Notes: generated from the letters alone by a model not told the origin. A stretch of 64,000 nucleotides of DNA from an uncultured Candidatus Saccharibacteria bacterium (GCA_965231085.1 OZ246413.1:91991-155990); one strand, 5' to 3'; positions 11,014 through 40,089 are shown, counted from the first letter of the stretch. Program-made: numbers and translations.

Positions 11014-11364
11014 TGCCGGCTGATCAGTTGGTCGCCCACGCTGAAAGACGCGTGGGAGGAAAGTCCGGGCAGCATAGGGCATGGCAGTTGCTAACGGCAA
11101 CCGAGAGTAATCTTAGGGAAAGTGCCACAGAAACGACACAACCTATACGGCTGACGCCGTGTAAGGAAATGGTGAAACGAGTGGGGTAAAAGCCCACAGT
11201 TCTCTGCGGTGACGCATGAGAAGAGGTAAACCCTGCCTGCTGCAAGGAGACAGTGATTAAAAGTGACCCGCTAAAACTGTCGATTATCCGCTTGAGCTTA
11301 GTGGCAACATTAAGACTAGATAGATGACCAGCTAAAACAGAACCCGGCTTATGGTCGGCCGGCA
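11014..11364 (+). ncRNA. rnpB: RNase P RNA (bacterial type A)
   Basis: It contains gaggaaagtccgggc (CR-I) and acagaacccggcttat (CR-V). The P1 stem tgccggc...gccggca closes the molecule. Confidence 0.9.
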
Positions 11365-11368
11365 TATA

Positions 11369-14022: not shown

Positions 14023-14054
14023 TACTCATAAATAATAAATCTAATTTATATAAA

Positions 14055-14175
14055 AATCACCCAACTATTTTTGAGCTGGGTGATTATTTGGGGAGGTTTG
14101 TTAGTTTGTTTTTATTTGTTCCTGGATGGAACAACGGCTTGCGAGAAGCCGTTGTTTCTAATCTGTTTTTGTTTT
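14055..14175 (+). ncRNA. Candidate small RNA: two strong hairpins and a U-rich tail
   Basis: Hairpin 1 is aatcaccca/tgggtgatt (14055..14085). Hairpin 2 has a 12-13 bp stem gaacaacggctt/aagccgttgttt (14128..14158) followed by T-rich sequence. There is no upstream + strand gene to terminate. The family is unknown. Confidence 0.25.
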
Positions 14176-14934
14176 TGAGCACTTTTTTTATTCAAGTGCT
14201 AACATCATCTTATAAACACTACTTTTTGGTGTCAACACGATTATGGCTAAAAGCTGTGTATAACTTAGCGCTTTGCGATTGCTTAGGTGAAGAGCTTATT
14301 GATAAAACTCATACAGCACGGGCTGCCTAAGCTCCAAGCAGCCCATAACTATCCATAAATTTGAGTCGAACCTCTAATAGTTATAAGCGGCAACCACTGC
14401 ATGGTTGAGACTTAATCATGCCACCATCAAGTTCGTTGGCAGCAAATCACGTCTATAGAGCGATTAAGCAAAATTTGTTGGCCAATGGAAGCTTCACGAT
14501 ATTGCTGGTGGTGCCAAGTCGAGACAATAAAGGCGCTCGCTCACAGAATTACAAAACCCCAAAAAATTATATTTGTTACTCAGCCACATGATGCTGGAAT
14601 AATTTCATAATTATTATAAAATCACTAAAAATACAGCAAATGTAATCACTACAACAGACTAGAAAATACAATAATACAACACCTATTTAATTTTATTAAC
14701 AGAGTATTGTTGTGCAAAATTAAGCACAAGAGGATTGACCTAGAGGGTCGTTTATGCTAGTCTTGATGATGTAAGGAAAAAACAAAAACTTACAATACAG
14801 CGTCGTCGGGGGAGGGGCGCATGGATAACGCTCTCTACTATAGGGAGCGGTCAGTCAAAGCCGAGAATACGGTAAGCGCTAAATAGTAATTACTTAAGGA
14901 GCGCATTTACCGTCTCGGCTCAAAGTTCTATAAT

Positions 14935-15285
14935 GTGCTAATGGTTCTTAATAGTCTCGGCTCAAAAAAGTTACCAGCCATTACCATGGCTGGTAGTTTT
15001 ATTGGTCTGATACTGCTTGTTTGCTACACAAACCCTTTGAAAAATATTGGTGCAATTTTTGCATTCTTTTTTTTATTGTTTACGTTTTTAGTTAGTTTTG
15101 GGTACATTCTGTTCGGTAGATCAGCCAGGCTGAGTCGAAGAGCAAAATCTAGGCTTGTAGTTACGTGTTTATTCCTGGTTCTCTGCTTAATGTTTAGCAG
15201 CACACACTCCCTAGCCGTTACCGATATACTAATTTTGCTTCTAACTGCGGCCGGCGTTCTTTTTTACCTTGGTCGTCGAAAATAA
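14935..15285 (+). CDS. Small multi-pass membrane protein, function unknown
   Basis: 116 aa with about four hydrophobic helices. The start is either GTG 14935 or ATG 14941. Confidence 0.45.
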   Translation: MLMVLNSLGSKKLPAITMAGSFIGLILLVCYTNPLKNIGAIFAFFFLLFTFLVSFGYILFGRSARLSRRAKSRLVVTCLFLVLCLMFSSTHSLAVTDILILLLTAAGVLFYLGRRK

Positions 15286-15335
15286 TAATCATTATCGCTA
15301 TTGGATACCTAGAGCCCTAAAGTATAATAATAAAC

Positions 15336-15740
15336 ATGAATCCTAACAGAGGAGAAAACCTACAGGTAAGTGTTCCTGCTGAATTACCGGCTGGCGCCGA
15401 GGTGGTCGATGGGGCAAAAAATGAAACACACTCTGTTACTCCAGAAAGCGCACCCTCTAAGCAAACGACAGCGCCATCCTTGCCAACTATTCCAACAGAT
15501 ATGCCGGTATCCCAAGCTCCTGTTATCCCTAGCGATGACAGTCAGGCTAGTGCGAGCGATGATCAGATTAATGCGGACAACCCCGACAGAATCGAGCGAC
15601 AATGGATAGATAAAGCAAAAGAGATTGTCTCCCAAACAAAGGACGATCCCTACAAGCAAAAGTCCGAAATGAGTAAGATCAAGGCTGAGTATATAAAAAC
15701 AAGATTTAATAAGGTCTTAAAGACAGAGTCAGAAGCATGA
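15336..15740 (+). CDS. Small acidic P/S/A-rich protein with a conserved-looking helical C-terminus, function unknown
   Basis: 134 aa. Its stop overlaps the next start (ATGA at 15737..15740), which suggests translational coupling with the ATPase. Confidence 0.5.
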   Translation: MNPNRGENLQVSVPAELPAGAEVVDGAKNETHSVTPESAPSKQTTAPSLPTIPTDMPVSQAPVIPSDDSQASASDDQINADNPDRIERQWIDKAKEIVSQTKDDPYKQKSEMSKIKAEYIKTRFNKVLKTESEA

Positions 15741-18649
15741 CACTTCTAATTATTTTTTTTGGCTTACTTTTCTTCATAGGAGTTGGGGCTTTTCTAGCTT
15801 TTATCTATCTTAGGAAACTATTTAGAGACCAAAAGAACTACGAGCGAGGGCTCAAGATGGTTCCGGTGCTAATTCATCTACCACCGCTTAGCGAAGATTC
15901 TGATTCAAAAGGGAGGGATGCTCGAGATATTGCTGACGAAAATATATCAAAAGCTCAAGTGTTGTACAGCATTCTTGCTAGCACCTTTCAGAAAGGCTTT
16001 AAGGCAAGATTTTATGGTCAGCGACACATAGGGCTGGAGGTTGTTGCCTCCAAAGGGGAAGTTAATTTTTATGCTGCTGTTCCAGTGCCACTTCTCAGCG
16101 TGGTCGAACAAGCAGTTGTTAGTGCCTACCCATCAGCAAGACTGGAAGAAGTGCCCGAGCACAACATTTTTAATCCAGTCGGTCGCATAGGGGGTACAGT
16201 GGGCGGCGAACTAACTCTAAAAGAGAGCTTTGCTTACCCAATATCGACATATCAAGATCTTAAAAGAGACACCATGCAGTCTTTATTGAATTCTCTGTCG
16301 ACCTTAACCAAAGATGACGGGGCAGGGATACAGATACTAATACGTGCTGCCGATAGTTCATGGAGAAAGAAGGCCGCAGAAGAGGTCAAAAAGAAGAAAG
16401 AGGGTAAAACAAAATCCAAGGGCTTTGATCTCTTGCTGTCCAACGCCGGTGATGTTTTTGGAGCATTAGTCAAACCGCCGGAGGCTAAGGACGAAACCAA
16501 AGCACCCCCTGAAGTATCATCTCTTGACCAATCAATCATCCAGGCCATAGAAGATAAGACTAAACAACCAGGCTATGAAGTTCTGATACGCGTGGTGGCT
16601 TCATCGAGTGTCACCCATCGAGCTCAAACAATACTTAACAACATGGTCGCTACCTTTTCTCTCTTTGATGCGCCAGGCCGAAACGGCTTTAAATTTCAAC
16701 CAGCTAAGGACGTAGAGTCATTTATAACGGCGTATATACTAAGATTCTTCCCACAGGAAAAGAATCTTAACATTCTTAACACCACGGAACTAGCGACATT
16801 GTTCCATTTTCCGGATCAAGAAAACATTCCAACCAGTCAGCTGGAACGTCAGGCGAGTAAACAGGTCGATGGGCCGCGCAATATGCCCGAAACCGGGCTC
16901 ATGCTGGGTTACAACGTGTTTAGGGGTGTTAAAAAAGCTATCAGGTTGGATCTCAATGATCGCAGAAGACACCTCTACATAGTCGGTCAGACCGGTACGG
17001 GTAAATCTGTTTTCATGGAGAACCTTGCTTTACAAGATATGTTGGACGGCAGAGGGTTTGCTTTTGTCGACCCTCACGGTGATACAGCCGAGAAGCTGCT
17101 TGCCATGGTGCCACAAGAAAGAACAGAAGATGTTATCTACTTCAGCCCAGCTGACATGGATTATCCCCTCGGGTTAAACTTATTCGAATTTAGTTCTCCT
17201 GATCAAAAAGATTTCTTGATACAAGAAACGATCAATATGCTTTATAAGTTGTATGATCCACAACATCAAGGGATAATGGGGCCGAGGTACGAACACCTTT
17301 TTCGTAATGCGGCGCTTGCCATCATGGCTGATCCAGAAGGCGGTACCTTCATTGATATTCCTAAGCTGTTCCGTGACCCCGCTTTTGTGGAACAAAAACT
17401 TAAGCATGTAACAGATCAAAACGTGTTAGAGTTCTGGCGCAAGGAAATGCCTCAAAGCCAGCGGTCGAATGAATTCGGCGAAGTAACCAGCTGGTTTGTC
17501 AGTAAATTCGGTGCCTTCTTATCTAACGAAATGATGCGCAATATCATTGGGCAGACAAAGAGCTCGTTTGATCTAAGAGATGTCATGGATAATAACAAAA
17601 TATTGCTTGTTAATCTTTCTAGGGGTAGAACGGGCGATTTAAACTCTAAGCTTCTGGGTATGATTTTCGTGATGAAGTTTCAGGCGGCAGCTATGAGCAG
17701 GGCCGATATGCCCGAAGAATACAGAAAAGATTTTTGTCTTTATGTGGATGAGTTTCAGAATTTCTCAACGGATTCGTTTGCCACTATTTTGAGCGAGGCA
17801 AGAAAGTATAGGCTTAATCTCATTGTTGCGAACCAATTCAGTACACAGCTAAGTGAAGAAATCAGAGATGCCGTCTTTGGTAATGTCGGTTCGATAGTCT
17901 CGTTTAGGGTAGGAACTAATGACGCTGAGTTCCTAGAGAAGCAGTTTGCGCCGGTTTTTGATATGGATGACTTACAGAGAATACCGAACGCCAACACCAT
18001 TGTAAGAATGTTAATTGGGGGAGTACCCGCTCAGCCTTTTAGTATGGCCACACTGCCTCCTCTGGGTAATCCGAACGCTCAGCTAGCGGACGCTCTTAAA
18101 CAACTGTCGGCAGCCAAATTTGGTAGGCCCAAGGCCCAGGTAGAAAAAGAGATCTTCGCTCGTCTAGAGACCAAAATCACTCAGCCACCAGGTATTGGTG
18201 GGGGGTTTGGAGCTTCAGCTAATCCATTCGCTCAAATACCGTCTTCAGCTGGCCAATGGCCAGCAAATTCGCAGTTTTCTGGCGCCGGGCTGGCTAGTCC
18301 GGCAGCAAGGCCCGCTAGTTCAATGCCAGCACCACCGATTATCCCTCAAAAAGCACCTCCTGGAGCTACAAGTTTCTTGGATGAGTGGCTTGCCAAAAGA
18401 AAAGGCGCTGTCCCAGGCGCTGCTTCAAGAGCGCCAACCGTTACTCCGAGCGCCCCTCCTCAATCTCCGCTTACCAGCTCTGTTTCACAAAGCCCCCAAA
18501 ACTTTACTCAGTCTCCTCAGCAATCGCCAGCTCCCACCCATCATGGTGAGCTAAAAATAAAGAGGGACATAGCTCCGGACTACCGTAACGACAGCGATTC
18601 TGACGTAGTTCGTATCGACCCCGATGGCAACCTTAGCTATAAACAGTAG
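15737..18649 (+). CDS. Membrane-anchored VirD4/TraD-like (type IV coupling protein family) ATPase with a long low-complexity tail
   Basis: 970 aa with an N-terminal TM helix and Walker A GQTGTGKS. The Walker B / TraG-D_C-like block is FCLYVDEFQNFSTDSFATILSEARKYRLNLIVANQ. The last ~190 aa are P/A/S/Q-rich. Confidence 0.72.
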   Translation: MTLLIIFFGLLFFIGVGAFLAFIYLRKLFRDQKNYERGLKMVPVLIHLPPLSEDSDSKGRDARDIADENISKAQVLYSILASTFQKGFKARFYGQRHIGLEVVASKGEVNFYAAVPVPLLSVVEQAVVSAYPSARLEEVPEHNIFNPVGRIGGTVGGELTLKESFAYPISTYQDLKRDTMQSLLNSLSTLTKDDGAGIQILIRAADSSWRKKAAEEVKKKKEGKTKSKGFDLLLSNAGDVFGALVKPPEAKDETKAPPEVSSLDQSIIQAIEDKTKQPGYEVLIRVVASSSVTHRAQTILNNMVATFSLFDAPGRNGFKFQPAKDVESFITAYILRFFPQEKNLNILNTTELATLFHFPDQENIPTSQLERQASKQVDGPRNMPETGLMLGYNVFRGVKKAIRLDLNDRRRHLYIVGQTGTGKSVFMENLALQDMLDGRGFAFVDPHGDTAEKLLAMVPQERTEDVIYFSPADMDYPLGLNLFEFSSPDQKDFLIQETINMLYKLYDPQHQGIMGPRYEHLFRNAALAIMADPEGGTFIDIPKLFRDPAFVEQKLKHVTDQNVLEFWRKEMPQSQRSNEFGEVTSWFVSKFGAFLSNEMMRNIIGQTKSSFDLRDVMDNNKILLVNLSRGRTGDLNSKLLGMIFVMKFQAAAMSRADMPEEYRKDFCLYVDEFQNFSTDSFATILSEARKYRLNLIVANQFSTQLSEEIRDAVFGNVGSIVSFRVGTNDAEFLEKQFAPVFDMDDLQRIPNANTIVRMLIGGVPAQPFSMATLPPLGNPNAQLADALKQLSAAKFGRPKAQVEKEIFARLETKITQPPGIGGGFGASANPFAQIPSSAGQWPANSQFSGAGLASPAARPASSMPAPPIIPQKAPPGATSFLDEWLAKRKGAVPGAASRAPTVTPSAPPQSPLTSSVSQSPQNFTQSPQQSPAPTHHGELKIKRDIAPDYRNDSDSDVVRIDPDGNLSYKQ

Positions 18650-25545: not shown

Positions 25546-25578
25546 TCATGGTAATGGTTATCATTACCGAATATCTAA

Positions 25579-25607
25579 AACGACCTCTATAGACGCGGTC
25601 GTTTTTT
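25579..25607 (+). terminator. Intrinsic terminator after tRNA-Ala
   Basis: Stem aacgacc/ggtcgtt, an 11-nt loop, then tttttt. Confidence 0.6.
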
Positions 25608-25671
25608 GTTTGTCCGGACATCTACCTAATACATCTGTTGGCACGGGGTTCGTTCCCGCTTCGTGTCTTTT

Positions 25672-26235
25672 CTACGAGAAGATTTTATGGAGCTCGGCTG
25701 TCGTTAAGCCACAATCTGAAGCCGTTTTGGCTATCAAGGCCAGAATGGACGCGACATCTTTTACTGCGCCTAATCCCGACTTCACTTTATCTATGAACTT
25801 ACGCTCCTTTGACCCTGGGTTGAAGGAGTTCTGCTTTGTGGCAAGTATGTCGGTTATGTCGACTATGAGTGTTTGAGTAACAGCAACCTCTTGGGTTACA
25901 GTGACTTGGTTTGTGGGCGAGTGCGATGGTGCGTAATGCGGTTCTTTTTCCTTCAAGTAAGAAGCTCCAAGCCACGCAACTAAACCACTGGCCGAAGTTT
26001 TTAGGTCGATTGTGCTAGCGGTTCTTTCTTGAGGGTTGTAGTTCTGTATATACGGAAGAAATCTATTTAGATCTTCCTGCAACAGGCTCGATAGGCTGGA
26101 AACTATATGTTCGTATTGCGTAACCGGACCGTTATATATCCGATCCGAGGCACTGGGCTCTCCAAGCCCGTATAGCAAACCCCGAAGTTCTTCATATAAG
26201 GCATTTACTTTACTGTAGATTGCTTCTTCTTCCAT
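25672..26235 (-). CDS. Hypothetical protein (187 aa) inside the rRNA spacer, antisense to the rRNA genes
   Basis: An intact ORF for which I recognise no family. It is predicted to be helical. Confidence 0.5.
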   Translation of the reverse strand: MEEEAIYSKVNALYEELRGLLYGLGEPSASDRIYNGPVTQYEHIVSSLSSLLQEDLNRFLPYIQNYNPQERTASTIDLKTSASGLVAWLGASYLKEKEPHYAPSHSPTNQVTVTQEVAVTQTLIVDITDILATKQNSFNPGSKERKFIDKVKSGLGAVKDVASILALIAKTASDCGLTTAELHKIFS

Positions 26236-26269
26236 TTCTTATATTATATAGCCTTTCAATTAATAGTCA

Positions 26270-26617
26270 TCATCGTGTAAGGCTTGGCCTTAAGACATAT
26301 CTTCCGTGCCCGACTCTTAGGTACTTCGAGTTCGGCCCCATGGAGTTGGCGCTCAGGCACTGCTTGATGGTGCCCCAGACGATCGGATGACCTAGTCTCT
26401 GCTCGCAGGCCAGGTGAATCTCCTTGGCCCTCATGGCTCCGACGGAGCCAGAGAGTACCTCGTACACGGTCTGATAGATCTCGCCAGGGCGGGGCTTTAC
26501 GGCTGCCGGCTTGATCTCTGAGCTGGTCTTGGCCAGTAGACCAGACACTCGTTTCGTGCTATCTTGAATCTCAAGTTCTACTCGAGGGTTCGAAAGTGCC
26601 CCCATTAGTTCCACCAT
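26270..26617 (-). CDS. Small winged-helix (HARE-HTH-like) DNA-binding protein, G+C-rich
   Basis: 115 aa. EIYQTVYEVL...MRAKEIHLACEQRLGHPIVWGTIKQCL...YLRVGHGRYVL resembles wHTH domains that end in RVGRGxYxL. Hand-counted G+C is 58-63 percent in the lines covering 26341..26520. Confidence 0.5.
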   Translation of the reverse strand: MVELMGALSNPRVELEIQDSTKRVSGLLAKTSSEIKPAAVKPRPGEIYQTVYEVLSGSVGAMRAKEIHLACEQRLGHPIVWGTIKQCLSANSMGPNSKYLRVGHGRYVLRPSLTR

Positions 26618-27009
26618 AAAAAGGACTTCTCAAAACGAAGTCTTTTTTAGTTTTAGGCCTACCTTATGCTAAAAGATGAATTACTTAGGGGCTAAATCGT
26701 AGAGTTTTTGACATTAGTTTTAGCTTTACAACCCCTGTTAATCTTGCTAAGATTACAGCTGAAGTTTGAGTGCGGCCAGTCGGCCAGTTGAGGGAAAATC
26801 ACAACGGCTAGTCCTCTGGGCTTACTCAAACACTCTTTTGCCAACAATCTATTGATTATCGGTGGAGTGAGTTAGCTTGCAACCTTAACAATTAATCGCA
26901 AAACATGAGAAAGCAAATGACAGACAGCGAATTGGTGAAAACCAATAGCTAGTCAATTGCACAATTAACCGACTCTAGTAAGTCTTTAGATTTACTAGGG
27001 TTGATATCG

Positions 27010-30366
<3,357 letters not shown>

Positions 30367-30646
30367 GAACCAGAATATGTACGCCCGTTAAACGGTGTGC
30401 GTTTTCTGGGAAGAGTGCATTGACTAGCTTTTGGTGATCATCTATACTCACTTAACAACAGTTAAAAGAGATAGTTGGCTCACAAAGTTGTTTGCTTAAC
30501 AACATGTAGTGCGATTAAACACGTGCATTTGGTTGCCGATGCAGCCAAGCCTTCCCCCATCGGGATGAGTAGCCCGACAAAATGTATTCCATTTTGCCGG
30601 CGCGATGAGAAAACCCCCGAAGGGGCTTCTCATAAGGCTTTGCCGC

Positions 30647-31087: not shown

Positions 31088-34000
31088 ATGGCACGCCAAA
31101 AAACAAAAATTTGCCTTTCGTGTAACCAGCTTTTTCGAGGTAGGCTGGATGCAAGAACCTGTTCGGAGCGGTGCCGTAAGCGTTTACAGAGAGCAAAGCT
31201 GCTAGTTGAACAAGAAGCTTCTGCAATTAAATCAGCTACTACGAATATAATTTCTGAGGTTGAGAATAAACTAACACCTTTCGCAACTGAGGAGGGGTTT
31301 GTCGGTGAATCACAGACTATAGCTACCACCCCATCACCTCAGTCGACTACTCAGCCGGCTATAGCTCAGTCACCGGTGATGCAGTCCCAGCCATCTGTGC
31401 AGCAACCTAGTGTTAACCCAGTTTCTCAGGCGCAAATACCAAGTGAGCCGATTTCTAGTTCTGTTACAACACCAACCCCTCAAACATTAATAGCGCCAAG
31501 CCCTATTCCAGTTGCGCAGCCACCAAAGGTAGAAACAGAACCGTTAGCGGTCTCATCTAGCCCGGTTGTTATCCCTCCGAGTCTAGAAAGCCCCCCCAAG
31601 GAGCCAACAACTCCATCCTCTGCGGTGCTCACTAAAAATGCCGAAGACTCCTTGGAGTTTATCCCTGCACAGACTGCCTCAGTTAGTTCACCGCTAGATG
31701 TTGCTACCCCGACAATCTTTGGCAATACCTATAGCCCTACAGCTACTCCTCGGACAGTAGAGGTTGCTCCACTAGGGCAAGGCGCACCTGCCCGACCTAA
31801 CTTGTCGAGCCCAATTCGCCCCTCCTCAATCCTCCCACCAGAGGCACCAAAGCCTCCTAAACCTCGGATGCCTAAGATCAACTTTCCATCTTGGGCTAAG
31901 ATGGCCATTGCTTCGACTGTGGTAATTTCGGCAGTAGCTATCGGTACATATCTCTTGGGCAACCAAAATGCCCAAACTAAAGTAAGTAACCAAACCACCA
32001 CCAATGCAGTTGCAGGGCAAGATGTTTTACCCTCAGGCTCTAACGTAACAAGCCTACACTTCAATAAAGCCGTCACCATAGATCAAGGGGCCAGCTTTAC
32101 TGCAACAGGCCCGTCAACATTTAAAAATCTAGCTAATTCGGCAGACGCATTTAATGTTCAAGCAGCCGATGGCACTAATCTGATAGCCGTTAATACTATT
32201 ACCGGTCTTGTAACTATAAACGGTATTCAAGGTTCGGGTGCATTGCTGACCAGTATTAACGCATCCAATATTACTAGCGGGACCCTGTCTAATTCACGGT
32301 TAGCTAGCAATGTAACACTGCTTGGTAATACCTTTAACGGGGCTAGCCAACTAGTCCAACTCAATTCGTCAGGGGCTATACCGGTGTTGGATGGTGCAAA
32401 CTTAACAAATGTTAATGCTCTCAGCCTACAAGGCAACGGTGCTAGCTACTACACCAACGCCAGCAATATAATTTCCGGGACGCTCAGTGACGTTCGATTA
32501 AGCACAAATGTAACACTGCTAGGCAATACCTTTAACGGAGCGGATCAACTAGTTAAATTAAACGGAATCGGCGGATTACCAGCTCTGAATGGTAGTCTGT
32601 TAACTAACCTGGACGCTTCTAACGTAAGCCTCGGAACTCTTAGTGATAGCCGTTTAAGCGCAAATGTCGCTCTACTTAATGGCACCGGCCCTCAAACTTT
32701 TACAGGTAGTAATAAGTTTACTGGCCCGACAGTATTCCAGACACTAACTAATGCTACTAATGCCTTCCAGTTGCAAAACCAGGCAGGGAACAACAACCTC
32801 ATAGTAGGCGACACCATAAACACTCGAGTTGGTATAGGCGTTGCAGCACCAAACTACACACTTGATGTTAACGGTGATGCCAACCTGGCCAACGGCCAAG
32901 CTTATCGTATTAACGGCGTAGCTGTTTGTACTAACGTTGGCTGTAACCCAAGTGGTGGGTCTAGCAGTTATGTCCAGGTTCAAGCCTCAACTCCTGGGTC
33001 TGCACAAACTGGTAATTCAAACATTACTGGCACAGCTATAGCTGGGTCGTTCTCGGGCTCTGGTTTAGGCTTAACCAACTTGGATGCTTCTCAGGTTGCT
33101 GCGGGTACCCTTAATGACTTGCGTTTGTCGGCCAATGTAACTCTTCAGGGCAATAACTTCAACGGCGCTAGCCAGCTGGTTCAAACAACTGCTTTAAGCT
33201 ATCTACCAGCGCTCAATGGCTCGCTACTCACCAACTTAAACGCTAGCAACATAGCTACGGGCACAATAGGTGACGCCCGGTTATCTGCTAATGTTGGATT
33301 ACTAAACGGTAACCAAACATACAGCGGCAACAATACTTTCTCTGGTAGCAATACCTTCAATAATGTAATTGTGGCCCCTGGCATTCAAACTACTAATACT
33401 GGCCACATAATAAACGTTGCATTCACCGGCACAGCCAGCGGCGCTTTGACCTATAACTTTGACGTAGCAGCTACCCCCGGAACCTATACTATCTGTACCT
33501 CCGTGGGCAACTGTTCTGGCGTAGGCGGAGGAGTTACCACCAGCGGCGGCACAATTAATAAAATTGCCAAGTTCAGCGGTTCACAGACTCTAGCTGACTC
33601 AATAATTACAGATAATGGCACGACAGTCACAATAGCTGGTAACCTCGCCGCCAACACAATTACCCAAAACGGCAATACTGTCTGTGACGTTGGCGGCAAC
33701 TGTGCCGGTGTTGGCGGGCAGGTGGGCACCTTCGGTACACCTACTGCCGGTACGATTGCATTGTTCCACGGCTCGGCCACTATAGAGAACTCAATTCTTA
33801 CTCAGTCTGCCGGTACCGTAACTGCGGGCGGTAACTTTAACGTAACTGGCAATTATCAAGTAAACGGTGTGCAGATAACTAGCGCTGTTTTGAGTAACGA
33901 TGCCAACATAGCTAAATTAAACGGCAACCAGACGTTTACTGGTAACCAAACATTCACTGGCACAGTGTTAATCCAGCCAGCCGTTGATAGCACTAGTATA

Positions 34001-37000
34001 TCGGTTATCCAGAATCACGCCGGAAACAGTAACCTATTTATTGCTGATACCAGCAATACCAGAATTGGTATAGGCAAATTGCCAGCCTACACGCTTGATG
34101 TAAACGGAGATATTAATGTGTCTACCGGCGGTTCTTACCGTATTAACGGTACTGCCATTTGTGGACCATCAACTACTTGTGCACCAAGCTCCGGCAGCAC
34201 TTCCTACATCCAAAACTCTGTAGCTCAGCAGACTAGCGCTAACTTTAACATCCAGTCTACAGCTACTGGATCGGTAGTGGGCGTATTGCAAGGTAAGAGC
34301 GGGCAGACAGCCGATCTTCTGCAAGTTAAGGATGGTTCGGCCAATACAGTATTATCAGTAGGTAACCAAGGCCAAACAATCTTTAAAGATAGTTCCGCCG
34401 GCTCGGCTACCTTCTTCCAGGTCCAAAATTCCTCCAGCGTATCTTTGCTTACGGCTAATACTACAACCGGTCAAATCTTACTGCCTAACGCAACTTTAGC
34501 CAGTACTGCACTATTGATTGGCGGCGACGCAAATCTGTACCGCTCAACTGCCTCTACTCTAAAGACTGATGGGAATGCGATAGTAGCCGGCGCAACAACC
34601 TCACTGGGCATATTGAACGCTAATGCTACGGGTAAAACAGCAATTACTATTGCGGACTCTGGTGCTCAAAACTCCGGCCTTACCATTGGGGGCGATACCA
34701 ACCTGTATCGCAGCGCTGCTGGTATACTCTCGTCAGACGCATCGAGCTTAAGACTTCAGTCCGGCACCAATACTCTCTACCTTGGATCTAATGGCTCGCA
34801 TATCTTGGGCGACCCATCCAATACTACTTTAGCCTTCGGAGGAAGCCTATATATTCAGAATGCCGCAGAGAGTGTGACCTATGGCAAATGGAACGCTACC
34901 GGGCTAGCCTTAGGTGGTAATGTTGCTGCAACTTCACAGCTGATGCTTGTATCCGATGCAGGCACAGCCGCCAGTGGTATAAAATTTGGCTCAACGGGCG
35001 ATACCAGCGTCTATAGAACAGCCGCTGGCTCACTGGCCGTTCAGGGCACCTCAAACTCCTCTACAGGCTTCCAAGTACTCAACTCAACAGGTACAGCCGT
35101 CCTGGCAGCCGATACCACCAACCAACAAATTAATGTAACTAACCTCCAATCCACTGGCTCCATTAGCCTACAAAACTCCCAAGGCGCCTCAATCCAACTA
35201 AGAACCGTATCTTCCTCCTCAACCGGCCTAACAGTCTCAGGCAATGAACTAACTGACAAAACTAGATCTACATCTACCCAAGGCGATGGCCGCCAAGCCC
35301 CAGACAGTAGCACGGGGGTGTGGGAAGGGACGACGAACTTAGCACCACTAGGTGGTGCAGAGAGCGCTATCTCACAATATTATCTAAACAACCAGAGTAT
35401 GACCATATCCAGAACCAGTGAAGTCGCTAAGTTTGGCACATATTCATTTAAAGCAGTTGGCAATGGTTCTGGTACTCAGTCTGTTGAGTGGCGAGGCGAT
35501 AATGTAGGCACGAGAGTAGCAGTTACGGCTGGTCAAACCTATACCATGTCCTTATGGGAGAAATCTTTGGCTAGCTATGCGAAAACACCAATACTCAATG
35601 TTGTTTACTACGATAACGGCGGTTCGATTATCCAAAACACTAATACCAGTGTTACTGTGCCCAGTCCTACAAGCTGGACTAGAGTTTCGTATACTACAAC
35701 AGCTCCAGCCAACGCCGTTAGCGTACGTCTAATATGGACCGTTCAAACCGTTGGAGCAGTAGGGGAAACATATTACTTTGATGGCGTACAATTCGAAAAT
35801 AAAGCTTACGCCACCCCTTATGTAGAGACAAATTTAGCTACGGCCAGCCGAACCGCGGCTGTTGTGACTGCACCTTCTGCTAATCTGAATACCACACAGG
35901 GTTGGGTTGCTGTAAGGTTCCGAGCAGGAGTGCCAAGTGGTATATCTGGCGGAAATGGAATTATCTCTTGGCGAGCTGACTCCAGCAACTATATTGACCT
36001 TTATTACAATGCTACATCTGGAACGAAGTGGAACGCTCGTCGGTCGGCAAGCAGCGGAACGATTAATGACGTTAATATTAGTAACTCCATTGCTGTTGGT
36101 GATCTAGAAACTGTTGTCTTTGCCTGGACTTCAACCCAGCTTATGCTAAGTGTTAATGGCTCTGCCTTTACAACCGCCTCGGATACGGCAATACCTTCTG
36201 GAATGCCAGCTACATTCAAGATAGGGCAGGGCGATGGCGGTGTTGGCAATCTTGACGGCGACATACTATGGATGGCTAGCGGCACTGGCACTCTAGCCAA
36301 CGCCGATGCTACAACTCTAAACGCCTACGGTAGTTCTGACCCAACACTATCAGGACTTGCATCACTAAACTCTGGTGCATCTTCCCCAGCTTTTGCTTGG
36401 GACGGAGTAGATACCAAATACTCTGGGACAAATGCTAGCTATGTTAACCAGTCTGGCATTGCAATTGATGATGTTAGCCTGACTCACTCGGCCAATGGCT
36501 CGTTAACACTGCAGGGTGCAGTAAACTCCACCACTGGTTTCCAGATACAGAACTCCTCAGCTACAGCACTTCTTACAGCAGACACCACAAACATGAGAAT
36601 ATCTGTTGGATCTATTGGTACAGCTACTGGGCAACTGTTTGTGGGCGGTAGACTGGCCGCAAGCAATACAAGTAGCGTTGCATACACGGGAGCTTATGCC
36701 CTCACAGGGCAGGGCAGTTATATATATGCGGTTGGGGGAAGTACGCTAAAAGTTTTGGACGCTTCTAGTCTTGCAATTGTAGGTTCCGTATCTACTAGTA
36801 CTGGTCCCCAAGCGGTTGCGGTAAGCGGTAAGTACGCCTACGTTGGAACAGGCAGCGGAGGAGGTAATAAATTTGAAGTTTATGATATTAGCAATCCATC
36901 AACACCAGTTAGTAAAGCATCAATCAGTACATCCCTTAGCTCTATCCTGGATATTAAGGTGCAGGGTAACTATGCGTACGCCGTCAGTCAGTCTGCAGCT

Positions 37001-39763
37001 ACAATGCAAGTTTTCAACATTAGCAATCCATCAAATCCGGTGTCTGTAGCAACATACACAACAGCAAGTTCAAACTTGCTGAAGATAAACATTCTGGGCA
37101 AATATGCATACATCGCTGGGTACAATACTAATAAGCTAGAAGTGGTTGATATATCTAATCCATCCTCACCAGTAAGTGCTGGTAACTTTACATTAAGCAC
37201 AGGTATTCCATATGGTTTAGCAGTACAAGGAAGGTACGCTTACATTGACGGAGGAACGGCCTTCCAGGTAGTAGATGTGTCCAACCCAGCTAGTATGAGC
37301 AGTGTTGCAACAACCACATCAGGGTCCAACCCGCTAGCCTTATATGCTCAAGGCAGATACGTTTATGCCGTTGATTACACGGACGCTTTAATAAAAGTTT
37401 ATGATGTCTCAACTCCGTCAGCCCCAACAGCTCAGGGCACAATTAGCACTGGTGCAAGTTCTGGGCCAAATTCGCTCTATGTACAAGGACGCTATGCCTA
37501 TGTAGCTAATAATGGAGGCAACACGGTGCAGGCTTACGACTTAGGTGGGGCATACGTACAGCAACTCGAAGCGGGCGGGGTAGAAGCAAGCACAATCCAG
37601 GTTGATAGTAGCCTTAAGGTTAACGGTGACACTAACATGCAAGGGGGGCTGAGTGTAGGCCAGAATCTACAGGTTAGTGGTAATATTGGCGCTAGTGGTG
37701 CAGCCTTGTTCCAGAATTCCACTAATTCAACCACTGCTTTCCAGATACAAAGTTCTACAACTACCTCTCTATTCAATGCAGACACGGCAGGCATGAACAT
37801 AACTCTAAATGGGGCCAATAATGCAGAAATTGGAAGTTGGGCAACTAACGCTAACTCCTTACCAGCAGCCCGAGAGCACGTAGCTACTGTTACCGCCAAC
37901 GGATATGTTTATGTGATGGGTGGTTGGTTAAGTGGCGCGCAATCCACCGTCTACTACGCCAAACTTAATACTGATGGCTCAACCGGTGCCTGGACGACCA
38001 GCTCTAACCCACTACCTTTAGCAAGAGCTAGGGCTCAGGCAACTGCGTACAACGGCTATGCCTATGTGCTAGGAGGATATGACGGTTCTTCTGCTGTAGC
38101 TACCGTCTACTACGCCAAACTAAACAGCGACGGTTCTACCGGCAGCTGGGCGACTAACACCAACGCTCTGCCAGCGGTTCGAACCTATGGTAGCGCAGTT
38201 GCCTATAACGGATTTATCTATATGGTTGGCGGTGATAACGGAACTGTAACCGGCCAATCCACCGTCTACTACGCCAAACTTAATGCTGATGGCTCAACCG
38301 GTGCCTGGACGACCAGCGCTAACCCGATAACCTCAGCTCGTATGGGGCACTCCTCGGTGGTTGCCAATGGTTACCTTTATGTACTAGGCGGAACTACTGG
38401 AGCCGACAACGCCATTACTAACACTGTTTATTATTCTAAGTTGAATAGCGATGGTTCAAATGGTTCTTGGAGTAGCACTAACACTATGCCAGCCAGCCGA
38501 GGTTATGGGGCGGCGGCTACAGTTAATGGGTACGTTTACTACCTGACTGGTTTTGACACCGGGAGTAATCCTAACTCTGGTATCTACTACGCCAGACTTA
38601 ATTCTGACGGCTCAACTGGCTCCTGGTCAACGTCGGCCAATTCTGCTACAACGGCTCTTGGAGCCTACCCAGGGGCAGCAGTCTCGAACGGCTACATCTA
38701 TCTGATCGGTGGTCGGGCCGGGTCTACTCAAGCTACCGTCTACTATACCTCTACCTCCCGTATCAAAGTGGGCGGATCGCTTGATCTGGTTGGCCTTGGC
38801 GGGCAAAATCTAAACGAAGGGAACACAGGCGGCTCAATAACGGCGGGGAACATAGCAGCCGTAGGATCGTTGCAGGTGCAAGGGGCTGCCAGCTTTGCAC
38901 AGGCCTTAAGTGTTAACGGAAGTATTAACGTGGCTGGCAGTGCGCTGTTCCAAAATGCGGCAAACTCAACTACCGCCTTCCAGATACTTAATGCTGCCGG
39001 AACCAGTATCCTAACAGTGGACACCTCTACAAGCGGTGGGGTCATAACCCTTGGCTCAGCCAGCTCTACCCCAGTTATATTAGTGCTTGGTAATAAGAAT
39101 ACTTCAGGCGACCCAACCTGTACTGACGGGGCAGTTTACTACAACTCTAATTCCACGCAAATTCGGGGATGTGTAAATGGCGCCTACAATAACATAGGCG
39201 GAGACAATGTAGTTACAGCCATCCCAACTACAAATCTATATGATGGTAGGAAAGTAAAGCTTCGAGCTGGCTCATCGCCTTATGATTTCGTTAGCTTGAC
39301 ATACGATGCTACCTACGGGAAATGGGTTTCGGATGAATCAGTAGCTATCGATACACCACAACAGCAAACAGCGACAGGGGCGCCAGGCGATACATCAATA
39401 TCGTATAGCGTTTTCTGGAAACCATACATAGATGCCGGATTAATCCCGCAGTTAAGGATGACCGGTCTTACGAATCACGATGCGACATCCACAAGCTCAG
39501 AATTAGGTTGGACGGCTCGACATGTTAGCGATTATGACTATGCTGCATCCGTACCAGATGATCTCACGACTATCATGACAACGTACGAGCAGCGCGCCCA
39601 AACAACTGCAAATAAATACGTTGGCATGAACATAAATTGGACAACGGTAACAAAACCAGCAACGCCAAAGGATATATTGTTAGTGAATATTTATGCGGGA
39701 GCCTCAGCTGGCGGGACACTATCCTATAGGGCTACGATATCGATACGTTGGGTTAGCCAATAG
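31088..39763 (+). CDS. Giant surface protein 1 (2891 aa). Domain order: cytoplasmic C4 zinc ribbon, P-rich linker, TM anchor, tail-fibre-like stalk, CBM4/9-like, LamG-like, 7 LVIVD repeats, 6 Kelch repeats, C-terminal tip
   Basis: A single uninterrupted ORF. The motifs were read from the translation (see findings). Confidence 0.85.
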   Translation: MARQKTKICLSCNQLFRGRLDARTCSERCRKRLQRAKLLVEQEASAIKSATTNIISEVENKLTPFATEEGFVGESQTIATTPSPQSTTQPAIAQSPVMQSQPSVQQPSVNPVSQAQIPSEPISSSVTTPTPQTLIAPSPIPVAQPPKVETEPLAVSSSPVVIPPSLESPPKEPTTPSSAVLTKNAEDSLEFIPAQTASVSSPLDVATPTIFGNTYSPTATPRTVEVAPLGQGAPARPNLSSPIRPSSILPPEAPKPPKPRMPKINFPSWAKMAIASTVVISAVAIGTYLLGNQNAQTKVSNQTTTNAVAGQDVLPSGSNVTSLHFNKAVTIDQGASFTATGPSTFKNLANSADAFNVQAADGTNLIAVNTITGLVTINGIQGSGALLTSINASNITSGTLSNSRLASNVTLLGNTFNGASQLVQLNSSGAIPVLDGANLTNVNALSLQGNGASYYTNASNIISGTLSDVRLSTNVTLLGNTFNGADQLVKLNGIGGLPALNGSLLTNLDASNVSLGTLSDSRLSANVALLNGTGPQTFTGSNKFTGPTVFQTLTNATNAFQLQNQAGNNNLIVGDTINTRVGIGVAAPNYTLDVNGDANLANGQAYRINGVAVCTNVGCNPSGGSSSYVQVQASTPGSAQTGNSNITGTAIAGSFSGSGLGLTNLDASQVAAGTLNDLRLSANVTLQGNNFNGASQLVQTTALSYLPALNGSLLTNLNASNIATGTIGDARLSANVGLLNGNQTYSGNNTFSGSNTFNNVIVAPGIQTTNTGHIINVAFTGTASGALTYNFDVAATPGTYTICTSVGNCSGVGGGVTTSGGTINKIAKFSGSQTLADSIITDNGTTVTIAGNLAANTITQNGNTVCDVGGNCAGVGGQVGTFGTPTAGTIALFHGSATIENSILTQSAGTVTAGGNFNVTGNYQVNGVQITSAVLSNDANIAKLNGNQTFTGNQTFTGTVLIQPAVDSTSISVIQNHAGNSNLFIADTSNTRIGIGKLPAYTLDVNGDINVSTGGSYRINGTAICGPSTTCAPSSGSTSYIQNSVAQQTSANFNIQSTATGSVVGVLQGKSGQTADLLQVKDGSANTVLSVGNQGQTIFKDSSAGSATFFQVQNSSSVSLLTANTTTGQILLPNATLASTALLIGGDANLYRSTASTLKTDGNAIVAGATTSLGILNANATGKTAITIADSGAQNSGLTIGGDTNLYRSAAGILSSDASSLRLQSGTNTLYLGSNGSHILGDPSNTTLAFGGSLYIQNAAESVTYGKWNATGLALGGNVAATSQLMLVSDAGTAASGIKFGSTGDTSVYRTAAGSLAVQGTSNSSTGFQVLNSTGTAVLAADTTNQQINVTNLQSTGSISLQNSQGASIQLRTVSSSSTGLTVSGNELTDKTRSTSTQGDGRQAPDSSTGVWEGTTNLAPLGGAESAISQYYLNNQSMTISRTSEVAKFGTYSFKAVGNGSGTQSVEWRGDNVGTRVAVTAGQTYTMSLWEKSLASYAKTPILNVVYYDNGGSIIQNTNTSVTVPSPTSWTRVSYTTTAPANAVSVRLIWTVQTVGAVGETYYFDGVQFENKAYATPYVETNLATASRTAAVVTAPSANLNTTQGWVAVRFRAGVPSGISGGNGIISWRADSSNYIDLYYNATSGTKWNARRSASSGTINDVNISNSIAVGDLETVVFAWTSTQLMLSVNGSAFTTASDTAIPSGMPATFKIGQGDGGVGNLDGDILWMASGTGTLANADATTLNAYGSSDPTLSGLASLNSGASSPAFAWDGVDTKYSGTNASYVNQSGIAIDDVSLTHSANGSLTLQGAVNSTTGFQIQNSSATALLTADTTNMRISVGSIGTATGQLFVGGRLAASNTSSVAYTGAYALTGQGSYIYAVGGSTLKVLDASSLAIVGSVSTSTGPQAVAVSGKYAYVGTGSGGGNKFEVYDISNPSTPVSKASISTSLSSILDIKVQGNYAYAVSQSAATMQVFNISNPSNPVSVATYTTASSNLLKINILGKYAYIAGYNTNKLEVVDISNPSSPVSAGNFTLSTGIPYGLAVQGRYAYIDGGTAFQVVDVSNPASMSSVATTTSGSNPLALYAQGRYVYAVDYTDALIKVYDVSTPSAPTAQGTISTGASSGPNSLYVQGRYAYVANNGGNTVQAYDLGGAYVQQLEAGGVEASTIQVDSSLKVNGDTNMQGGLSVGQNLQVSGNIGASGAALFQNSTNSTTAFQIQSSTTTSLFNADTAGMNITLNGANNAEIGSWATNANSLPAAREHVATVTANGYVYVMGGWLSGAQSTVYYAKLNTDGSTGAWTTSSNPLPLARARAQATAYNGYAYVLGGYDGSSAVATVYYAKLNSDGSTGSWATNTNALPAVRTYGSAVAYNGFIYMVGGDNGTVTGQSTVYYAKLNADGSTGAWTTSANPITSARMGHSSVVANGYLYVLGGTTGADNAITNTVYYSKLNSDGSNGSWSSTNTMPASRGYGAAATVNGYVYYLTGFDTGSNPNSGIYYARLNSDGSTGSWSTSANSATTALGAYPGAAVSNGYIYLIGGRAGSTQATVYYTSTSRIKVGGSLDLVGLGGQNLNEGNTGGSITAGNIAAVGSLQVQGAASFAQALSVNGSINVAGSALFQNAANSTTAFQILNAAGTSILTVDTSTSGGVITLGSASSTPVILVLGNKNTSGDPTCTDGAVYYNSNSTQIRGCVNGAYNNIGGDNVVTAIPTTNLYDGRKVKLRAGSSPYDFVSLTYDATYGKWVSDESVAIDTPQQQTATGAPGDTSISYSVFWKPYIDAGLIPQLRMTGLTNHDATSTSSELGWTARHVSDYDYAASVPDDLTTIMTTYEQRAQTTANKYVGMNINWTTVTKPATPKDILLVNIYAGASAGGTLSYRATISIRWVSQ
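35096..35337 (+). repeat. 242-nt tract identical, apart from one synonymous mismatch, to 44347..44588 in the paralogous gene
   Basis: Base-by-base comparison. The only difference is G35317 versus A44568. The flanks drop to roughly two-thirds identity. Confidence 0.95.
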
Positions 39764-40039: not shown

Positions 40040-40089
40040 TAGTGTTAGTTAATCGAACAAAAAAATTAACAAAAACAAATAAACAAAAA

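Follow-up and report, generated by a model that had tools for sequence, protein, structure and literature searches.

What does an ATPase of the type IV coupling-protein kind do on a chromosome where no secretion gene lies next to it? This question is raised by a three-gene operon in a 64,000-nt stretch of DNA (the window; GCA_965231085.1 OZ246413.1:91991-155990) from an uncultured Candidatus Saccharibacteria bacterium. The operon encodes a small four-helix membrane protein, a 134-aa protein and a 970-aa ATPase, which a first-pass annotation of the window had described as an orphan of the VirD4/TraD type. Here we assign the 970-aa protein to a type IV coupling-protein subfamily that carries the domain DUF8128 and is found throughout Patescibacteria, as its ortholog in Saccharimonadia. 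We favour, with a confidence somewhat better than even, the reading that in Patescibacteria this DUF8128 ATPase is the coupling ATPase of the type IV secretion system, encoded apart from it and working with two small partners peculiar to the lineage.

Domain layout and family of the ATPase

The ATPase gene occupies positions 15737-18649 on the plus strand, as do all features of the operon given below. Its product begins with a transmembrane anchor at residues 1-25 (15737..15811; hydropathy 2.59), the single hydrophobic segment of the protein, and an AlphaFold2 (AF2) model places a helix at residues 2-39 with a predicted local distance difference test score (pLDDT) above 90. The anchor is directly followed by the basic stretch RKLFRDQKNYERGLK, which, by the positive-inside rule, points to a cytoplasmic location for most of the protein. 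The next ~350 residues, which the first-pass annotation could not assign, are the Pfam domain DUF8128 (about residues 40-385, 15854..16891; PF26449, precomputed for the exact window protein and its homologs). Structure prediction of this region, proposed in that annotation, yields an alpha/beta domain that is confident except for a disordered loop at residues 223-261.

DUF8128 is directly followed by a P-loop ATPase. Its Walker A motif, GQTGTGKS, lies at residues 417-424 (16985..17008), and G417, G420, G422 and K423 are invariant in an alignment of 150 sequences. An all-alpha insertion at residues 488-604 (17198..17548), placed as the all-alpha domain of TrwB, is predicted to interrupt the core, with AF2 helices at 488-506, 516-530, 538-555, 561-574, 578-596 and 598-604 lying between core strands. 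The Walker B block LYVDEFQN at residues 668-675 (17738..17761) can be aligned to its counterpart in TrwB and is part of the longer block FCLYVDEFQNFSTDSFATILSEARKYRLNLIVANQ (residues 666-700), which contains YVDEF (669-673), ARKY (688-691) and then Q700; D671, E672, R689, K690 and Q700 are again invariant in the 150 sequences.

The protein ends in a low-complexity tail rich in Pro, Ala, Ser and Gln (P/A/S/Q; residues 811-970, 18167..18646) with conserved islands; these four residues make up 48-49% of the last 160-190 positions. The tail had a pLDDT below 50 in a first AF2 model and is found in most Saccharimonadia members and absent from other classes. It contains the motif FLDEWL (residues 880-885, 18374..18391), which is invariant in 44 close homologs and recurs as the pattern FLD[ED]W[LM] in 28 of 38 Saccharimonadia proteins; it is a candidate docking site. 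The first AF2 model, built from the 44 close homologs, was unusable (pLDDT 50). The usable model covers residues 1-830, rests on an alignment of 150 diverse sequences and reaches a pLDDT of 90.9 and a predicted template modelling score (pTM) of 0.77; it consists, in order, of the N-terminal helix, the alpha/beta DUF8128 domain, a beta-hairpin and a RecA-like core with an inserted helical bundle.

By sequence, the best matches among solved structures are the coupling proteins TrwB and DotL, with TrwB reached at E 2e-8 by the family profile. Consistent with this, a Foldseek search of the PDB matched the AF2 model to TrwB over the ATPase domain with a template modelling score (TM-score) of 0.60-0.64 at 17% identity, and Cag-beta, DotL and HerA were among the other matches. 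The features expected of a coupling protein are present in the core, namely Walker A, Walker B, the conserved Arg/Lys and the Gln, and, according to the model, the inserted all-alpha domain. The two-helix N-terminal membrane domain of coupling proteins was not found, the single helix at 1-25 being followed by soluble DUF8128, and neither a relaxase nor a VirB4 cluster lies beside the gene in the window or at the other Patescibacteria loci. We also considered the coupling-protein profiles PF02534, PF10412, PF12696, TIGR03743 and others. Among 44 diverse members outside Saccharimonadia, 41 match TrwB_AAD_bind, 35 TraG-D_C and 21 T4SS-DNA_transf; members in other Patescibacteria classes pass the TrwB_AAD_bind cut-off (P0150, for example, scores 32.1 against 20.5), and precomputed PF10412 and PF02534 matches are also given for them. 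The window protein further matches phrog_5156 over residues 76-809 (E 1.3e-88). The earlier view of a TraD/TraG/VirD4-type relative, distinct from HerA and FtsK, is thus upheld, and the assignment of the window ATPase as a DUF8128-type, vertically inherited member of the coupling-protein lineage in Patescibacteria is secure. The DUF8128-ATPase family is catalogued and functionally uncharacterised.

The best Foldseek E-values belong to full-length VirB4 (TrwK; 2.8e-14 over ~900 aligned columns, with a TM-score of only ~0.3). The window protein has no match to PF03135 (CagE_TrbE_VirB) and scores 13.7 for AAA_10 against a cut-off of 27.5. The likeness of its N-domain to that of VirB4, suggested by Foldseek, is unsupported by sequence profiles, and hhalign joins it to a plasmid VirB4-like protein in the Walker A region only, with a probability of 2.9%.

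That the protein is a helicase of the HerA type or a defence ATPase, with its partner at another locus, is suggested by the Pfam match to DUF87, the HerA central domain (28.1 bits against a cut-off of 23.2), by weak PADLOC matches to HerA, by a PADLOC match to mad8 (1e-15) and by the HerA structures in the Foldseek results. However, the DUF87 match is limited to the Walker A region (residues 402-496), HerA is outranked by TrwB and DotL in sequence and by TrwB in TM-score, and the NCBIfam and PADLOC HerA scores are far under family level. Neither NurA nor another defence partner gene lies nearby, and the gene is core, essential (in a relative, see below) and vertically inherited, unlike genes of defence islands. 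With matches confined to Walker A and no partner gene, we rejected this role as very improbable.

A conserved operon and its counterpart in Southlakia epibionticum

The ATPase is not a peculiarity of one epibiont; the family is Patescibacteria-wide and vertically inherited. More than 6,398 homologs were scored, and the representative 50%-identity clusters number 21,808 at E <= 1e-3 and 5,715 at E <= 1e-30. Full-length matches extend down to ~33% identity in tail-less proteins of 780-860 aa, with distant members from Parcubacteria, Doudnabacteria, Uhrbacteria, Azambacteria and others, all with precomputed PF26449. When each species was represented by one genome, the scan found at least 599 carriers of the family across many Patescibacteria classes, including Saccharimonadia and Staskawicz-, Davies-, Berkel-, Woese-, Uhr-, Falkow-, Curtiss-, Peregrini-, Portnoy- and Levyibacteria. 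More than 100 relatives are 69-87% identical to the window ATPase and conserved over its whole length. Two genomes outside Saccharimonadia have two full-length DUF8128-type paralogs, in tandem or a few kb apart (L044 1128-6163; L056 5956-8328 and 10187-13408).

Upstream of the ATPase gene lie the reading frames of the membrane protein (14935-15285, 116 aa as listed) and the 134-aa protein (15336-15740). The latter is translationally coupled to the ATPase through an ATGA overlap, in which the ATPase start codon (ATG, 15737-15739) overlaps the stop codon of the 134-aa gene (TGA, 15738-15740). The first annotation is correct in the three open reading frames (ORFs), in this overlap, in the Walker motifs and in the tail rich in P/A/S/Q. 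The listed 116-aa membrane protein has four hydrophobic segments and an isoelectric point (pI) of 10.7. The 134-aa protein (pI 4.8) has a disordered, acidic and proline-rich N-terminal half (residues 1-88, pI 4.1) followed by a conserved basic helical module of ~46 residues (pI 9.3). Neither small protein has a match in Pfam, NCBIfam, PHROGs or PADLOC.

A promoter-like site, TTTACC-17 nt-TATAAT, lies directly 5' of the operon (14906..14934; 10/12 match). Sites of this type are no commoner in the region than in shuffled sequence, so that the promoter is a lead only. Because the site ends at 14934 and homologs are 114-115 aa long, the membrane protein probably starts at the ATG at 14941 and would then have 114 aa. 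TATAAT boxes are present at 14926-14934, directly 5' of the start listed for the membrane protein, and at 15322-15327, where 8 nt separate the box from the start codon of the 134-aa gene. No Shine-Dalgarno-like sequence is evident ahead of either gene, and both may have leaderless or very-short-leader transcripts.

The operon is conserved in Saccharimonadia, where yifB lies 5' in 26 loci and gyrB 3' in 32 loci. Homologs of the 134-aa protein, found with a hidden Markov model (HMM), lie just 5' of the ATPase gene at 36 related Saccharimonadia loci, with gaps of -35 to +271 nt, and HMM homologs of the membrane protein occur at 35 such loci, mostly 5' on the same strand (~5.5 kb off in three). 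A same-strand ORF of 90-200 aa ends within 150 nt of the ATPase start at 34 of the 37 Saccharimonadia loci with enough upstream sequence. The expected co-conservation of the three genes thus holds within Saccharimonadia; at the ATPase loci of other Patescibacteria classes neither small protein is detectable. There, a same-strand ORF of 90-200 aa lies directly upstream in 24 of 37 loci, and the recurrent clusters of such ORFs (c13, c19 and c56) combine a low-complexity N-terminal half with a conserved helical C-terminal end of ~50 residues. Profile comparison of these clusters with one another, and of the 134-aa protein with the upstream small proteins of other classes, gave nothing significant, which leaves a common origin unproven; the only likeness was a 'DDPY' motif that the 134-aa protein shares with one of the clusters.

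The same arrangement is published for Southlakia epibionticum ML1. According to Tables S1 and S2 of Wang 2023 (PMC10633639), its gene order is yifB, a small membrane protein (SEML1_0140), a ~139-aa protein (SEML1_0141), a ~1,000-aa ATPase (SEML1_0142) and gyrB/gyrA. In the transposon sequencing (Tn-seq) calls of Table S1, SEML1_0140 has a growth defect (NE/GD/GD), SEML1_0141 (139 aa) has 0 insertions and is essential (GD/ES/ES), and SEML1_0142 is ES/ES/ES, which places it in class I of the essential genes, a class with only 61 members. SEML1_0142 is listed there as a 1,019-aa 'TraM recognition domain-containing protein' and flagged as core and Patescibacteria-enriched, and the searched passages of the paper do not mention SEML1_0140-0142. 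From the identical gene order, the lengths and the annotation we infer that SEML1_0142 is orthologous to the window ATPase. This orthology is further supported by L027, a close ML1 relative, in which the ATPase, L35 and IF3 lengths are identical and the rest near-identical; the ATPase of L027 and the window protein share 53% identity.

The same source records a second coupling-protein-like paralog, SEML1_0293, which matches TrwB_AAD_bind and TraG-D_C and is dispensable (NE/NE/NE), and an essential secretion cluster next to dnaA, SEML1_0006-0019, without a recognizable coupling protein or relaxase (PMC10633639). In a survey of 3,035 Patescibacteria genomes, 2,918 had homologs of VirD4-type coupling proteins, 5,713 in all, of which only 148 lie near virB4, and VirB4 was present in 2,417 genomes (Quinonero-Coronel 2025, PMC12102498). 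It described the t4cp homologue of S. epibionticum ML1 as far from virB4 and not essential, and noted that exaptation 'cannot be ruled out'. The supplement text of that survey gives no ML1 locus tags; its non-essential homologue is probably SEML1_0293. Taken together, these data indicate that Saccharibacteria carry two paralogs and that the essential one is the DUF8128 type present in the window. The term orphan therefore fits the position of the gene and not the wider picture, in which a secretion cluster lies elsewhere in S. epibionticum, by the tables of PMC10633639, and VirB4 is widespread (PMC12102498).

The setting of the gene also brings in the possibility of an FtsK/SpoIIIE-like chromosome translocase acting at division. 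Its neighbours are gyrB and gyrA, the larger neighbours in other classes include dnaX, ribonucleotide reductase and an Xer-like tyrosine recombinase, the protein has a P/Q-rich region, and a structure-based annotation within PMC10633639 assigns the SEML1_0142 core to the FtsK P-loop domain (ECOD e2iutB2). On the other hand, the window protein scores 15.4 bits for Pfam FtsK_SpoIIIE (PF01580) against a cut-off of 24, no FtsK alpha or gamma domain was found in it, and the neighbours vary among classes and are generic housekeeping genes, CorA and CysS being further examples. Moreover, the gene tables of S. epibionticum already contain a canonical essential FtsK, SEML1_0096, with four transmembrane (4TM), alpha, beta and gamma domains (PMC10633639). 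In view of the canonical FtsK in the relative and the sub-cut-off score, we rejected an FtsK replacement; such a function is highly unlikely.

Relatives outside Patescibacteria and the role of the ATPase

Full-length homologs outside Patescibacteria come mainly from plasmids of Bacillus and related genera and from Bacillus phages. Full-length matches in the viral structure library BFVD include phage G gp156 (E 1.9e-46, TM-score 0.51) and a phage JL protein (TM-score 0.63), and the alignment of the family profile to gp156 spans 668 columns, DUF8128 included (E 1.5e-48). By tblastn, 38 Bacillus phage records contain homologs, SPO1 gp27.4 among them. In phage G, gp156 adjoins the VirB4-like ATPase gp155, and the TrbL/VirB6-like gp153 and a relative of SPO1 gp27.3, of the Replic_Relax type, are encoded nearby. 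The SPO1 and SP8 homologs adjoin a Replic_Relax protein, which in SP8 comes after the homolog and is the only adjacent gene of this kind. A 'DNA translocation operon' of phage 0305phi8-36 comprises a relaxase (orf200), a coupling ATPase (orf201), a VirB6-like and an MreB-like protein; orf201 is similar to SPO1 gp27.4 and has an unusual N-domain without membrane helices, and the module is dispensable in the laboratory (Pathria 2012, PMC3357382). An actin-like (ALP/MreB-like) protein is likewise encoded in homolog-bearing phage modules of SP8 (L086 3836-4855) and 0305phi8-36 (orf207; PMC3357382).

The plasmids with full-length homologs amount to 18 records, nearly all from Bacillus and related genera. 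The B. subtilis MH-1 plasmid protein WP_121549396 (886 aa) aligns with the family over 653 columns, the N-domain included (hhalign E 5.9e-46), and its gene is the first in a transfer cluster. Next come, in this order, Replic_Relax, two small genes, TcpC, another small gene, TcpE, a VirB4-like ATPase of 848 aa with AAA_10, and a gene for a 784-aa product that is annotated as conjugal transfer protein. A B. amyloliquefaciens plasmid has the MH-1 gene order plus a PrgI-family protein. In ICEBs1 and Tn916, the first gene of the transfer cluster is the coupling protein, and the Bacillus plasmid order parallels theirs. Because the plasmid and phage homologs sit in conjugation-type clusters, the family, judged by gene neighbourhood, holds the coupling-protein slot of monoderm transfer systems outside Patescibacteria. 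Neither small protein of the window operon has a significant match among the small proteins encoded in the plasmid and phage clusters from Bacillus, TcpE and PrgI included. We rejected an assignment of these plasmids to the pLS20 family, as pLS20 has a canonical two-helix VirD4. An alphaproteobacterial plasmid, from Sulfitobacter (NZ_CP081110.1; L091 6992-8179), encodes a 395-aa protein with the ATPase domain only, 38% identical to residues 379-769; located among transposases, it gave no functional clue. Domain-only matches also occur on Streptomyces, Embleya and Bradyrhizobium replicons.

Homologs on plasmids and phages could also mean that the window gene was left behind by a prophage or an integrated conjugative element. 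However, the same housekeeping flanks recur across Saccharimonadia, the gene is conserved over its whole length in the more than 100 relatives noted above, the GC content of the operon region is the same as that of its flanks, no integrase or repeat context is present, and the syntenic gene is essential in the relative. On synteny, conservation and composition we rejected this origin, which we consider scarcely credible.

It is more likely that the ATPase serves a secretion system encoded elsewhere in the genome. In the published VirB4 phylogeny, the Patescibacteria secretion system is nested within monoderm conjugation systems, and the closest outside relatives of the ATPase occupy the coupling-protein slot of such systems; in Saccharibacteria, the secretion cluster has no coupling protein of its own, and in S. 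epibionticum both the cluster and the ATPase are essential. These points lead us to propose the DUF8128 ATPase as the coupling ATPase of that system. In such a mechanism, the ATPase would form a membrane-attached ring that recruits substrates at the expense of ATP and hands them over to a type IV secretion channel. The channel would consist of VirB4, VirB6, VirB3 and VirB8-like proteins and pilins, which in Saccharibacteria are encoded elsewhere without their own coupling protein. The 134-aa protein might be a bound adaptor or regulator and the four-helix protein a membrane partner. Small bound partners are known for Cag-beta, with CagZ, and for DotL, with its adaptors, and provide a model for the role of the 134-aa protein.

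As no relaxase is present, the cargo is more likely a protein or a non-conjugative nucleic acid than a conjugative substrate. Relaxases are rare across Patescibacteria, and the secretion system of S. epibionticum, so far the one species in which essentiality was tested, is without a linked coupling protein or relaxase. A 2026 preprint reports uptake of host RNA by a Patescibacterium, possibly via secretion-system pili, and import of nucleic acid is for this reason one possibility for the cargo.

Several observations weigh against a secretion role. The ATPase gene is unlinked to secretion genes: for this genome the inventory of such genes is that of the 64-kb window, in which none was detected, and at 42 further loci from Patescibacteria there is no recurrent secretion component. 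Without a relaxase in the window, the classical substrate is lacking. The window protein itself scores under the curated cut-offs of every coupling-protein profile (TraG-D_C 19.1/22, TrwB_AAD_bind 11.4/20.5, SXT_TraD 37.7/366). Coupling-protein homologs are found in more genomes than VirB4 (2,918 versus 2,417 of 3,035; PMC12102498), so that some genomes may have the ATPase without the channel. Finally, in the Tn-seq classes listed in PMC10633639, SEML1_0142 is class I, an earlier call of essentiality, and most secretion-cluster genes are class II, which means that their phenotypes are not identical.

These points lend weight to a serious rival, namely that the ATPase is an exapted coupling-protein relative which, independently of any secretion system, serves another essential envelope process specific to Patescibacteria, such as one tied to type IV pili, uptake of host material or surface-protein export, with the small proteins as dedicated partners. 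The separation from secretion genes in nearly all genomes and the count gap are what such a role would predict, the class I call is shared with most type IV pilus genes in the same tables (PMC10633639), and exaptation was explicitly left open by Quinonero-Coronel et al. (PMC12102498). However, the inspected outside contexts of full-length homologs (two Bacillus plasmids and phage G) all lie beside VirB4-type and other transfer genes, the SP8 homolog lies beside a relaxase-like gene, and incomplete metagenome-assembled genomes may account for part of the count gap. The Saccharibacterial secretion cluster described in PMC10633639, furthermore, lacks a coupling protein of its own. We therefore consider exaptation a real possibility, though a rather doubtful one, and retain the detached coupling ATPase as the favoured reading.

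A bolder form of that reading, which we put forward tentatively and regard as unlikely to hold in full, is that the DUF8128 ATPase and its two partners are the missing essential motor of a relaxase-free Patescibacteria secretion system that drives epibiotic traffic. If true, this traffic could be the import of host macromolecules or the export of effectors into the host, and a coupling ATPase would have parted from its machine and become established among the core genes of the chromosome.

That coupling-protein homologs in Patescibacteria lie far from virB4 is already published (PMC12102498). What appears to be new is that two paralogs can be separated, of which the DUF8128-type one is essential, that the family is linked to the coupling ATPases of Bacillus plasmids and phages, and that candidates for its partners and a conserved motif in its tail are defined. 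The transfer of material between host and epibiont matters in Patescibacteria, a host-dependent group that accounts for a large share of bacterial diversity. The DUF8128 ATPase is a concrete candidate for the energising, substrate-selecting component of the secretion system, and it is, like the two candidate partners and the tail motif, accessible to genetics in the now tractable S. epibionticum.

Surroundings of the operon and known systems

In agreement with the first-pass annotation, Pfam scans of the other large ORFs of the window found no VirB4, VirB6, relaxase or pilin family, and gyrB (start 18791) lies directly 3' of the ATPase gene, with gyrA next. The operon is preceded by a divergent yifB/comM-like gene and an infC-rpmI-rplT cluster. 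The scans gave only housekeeping genes, encoding TGT, a ProS-type synthetase, MiaA, YifB/ComM, IF3/L35/L20, GyrB/A and S1, as well as IF2, PriA, Fmt, Def, Adk, Map, FtsA and FtsZ, and a few ORFs, such as 40042-46710, are without a Pfam match. The ~900-bp gap between yifB/comM and the operon (14023-14934) has no convincing ORF and no Rfam match, and contains terminator-like hairpins on both strands at 14055-14158; in S. epibionticum the corresponding gap measures ~2.8 kb, and in L001 ~1 kb.

Two giant ORFs lie in tandem on the plus strand: 31088-39763 (2,891 aa), with LVIVD and Kelch beta-propeller repeats, and 40042-46710 (2,222 aa), the unmatched ORF mentioned above. Both may encode surface or host-interaction proteins. 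A bacterial class A RNase P RNA (254 bits) is located at 11016-11366 (+), and because it occupies the other strand, a 113-aa ORF at 11024-11365 is almost certainly spurious. Insertions and introns are common in Patescibacteria rRNA. The 23S rRNA match at 27010-30367 (+) spans 3,358 nt against a model of 2,925 positions, with ~430 nt of insertions, and a minus-strand ORF of 163 aa without a Pfam match lies inside it (28985-29476). The spacer between tRNA-Ala and 23S rRNA (25546-27009) is unusually long at ~1.46 kb and contains two minus-strand ORFs, 25672-26235 (187 aa) and 26270-26617 (115 aa), also without a Pfam match.

Compared with known systems, the closest arrangement is that of S. epibionticum, where SEML1_0140-0142 have the same gene order as the window operon. 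ML1 and many relatives differ in having two extra genes (DUF5353-like and DUF11) between the ATPase gene and gyrB, which are absent from the window. The paralog SEML1_0293 is of similar size, with its ATPase domain beginning near residue 400, and also lies apart from the secretion cluster; unlike SEML1_0142, it is non-essential, and it has no counterpart in the window.

The coupling ATPases of Bacillus plasmids and phages (WP_121549396, phage G gp156, SPO1 gp27.4, the 'VirD4 component-like' protein of SP8, 0305phi8-36 orf201 and phrog_5156) are homologous over both DUF8128 and the ATPase domain, with BFVD TM-scores of 0.51-0.63 over the full length. They are only 21-24% identical to the window protein and have neither the N-terminal membrane helix nor the P/A/S/Q tail. 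They also belong to mobile elements and have a relaxase-like neighbour, and in the plasmids and phage G they are accompanied by VirB4-, VirB6-, VirB3- or VirB8-like genes as well.

VirB4 (TrwK of R388) shares with the window ATPase a two-part layout of a large N-domain and a C-terminal ATPase. The two differ in that their TM-score is ~0.3 and their identity ~10%, and the window protein belongs to neither CagE_TrbE_VirB nor AAA_10.

The canonical coupling proteins TrwB (R388), VirD4, TraD, DotL and Cag-beta have the RecA-like core, Walker A and B, ARK motif, Gln and all-alpha insertion of the window ATPase and are, like it, anchored in the membrane. Some of them also have a partner-docking C-terminal tail, as in TraD with TraM, or small partners, as in Cag-beta with CagZ and DotL with its adaptors. 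In contrast to these proteins, the window ATPase has one helix and a DUF8128 domain of ~350 aa in place of the two-helix membrane domain, and its gene is chromosomal, vertically inherited and, in a relative, essential, with neither a relaxase nor secretion genes next to it.

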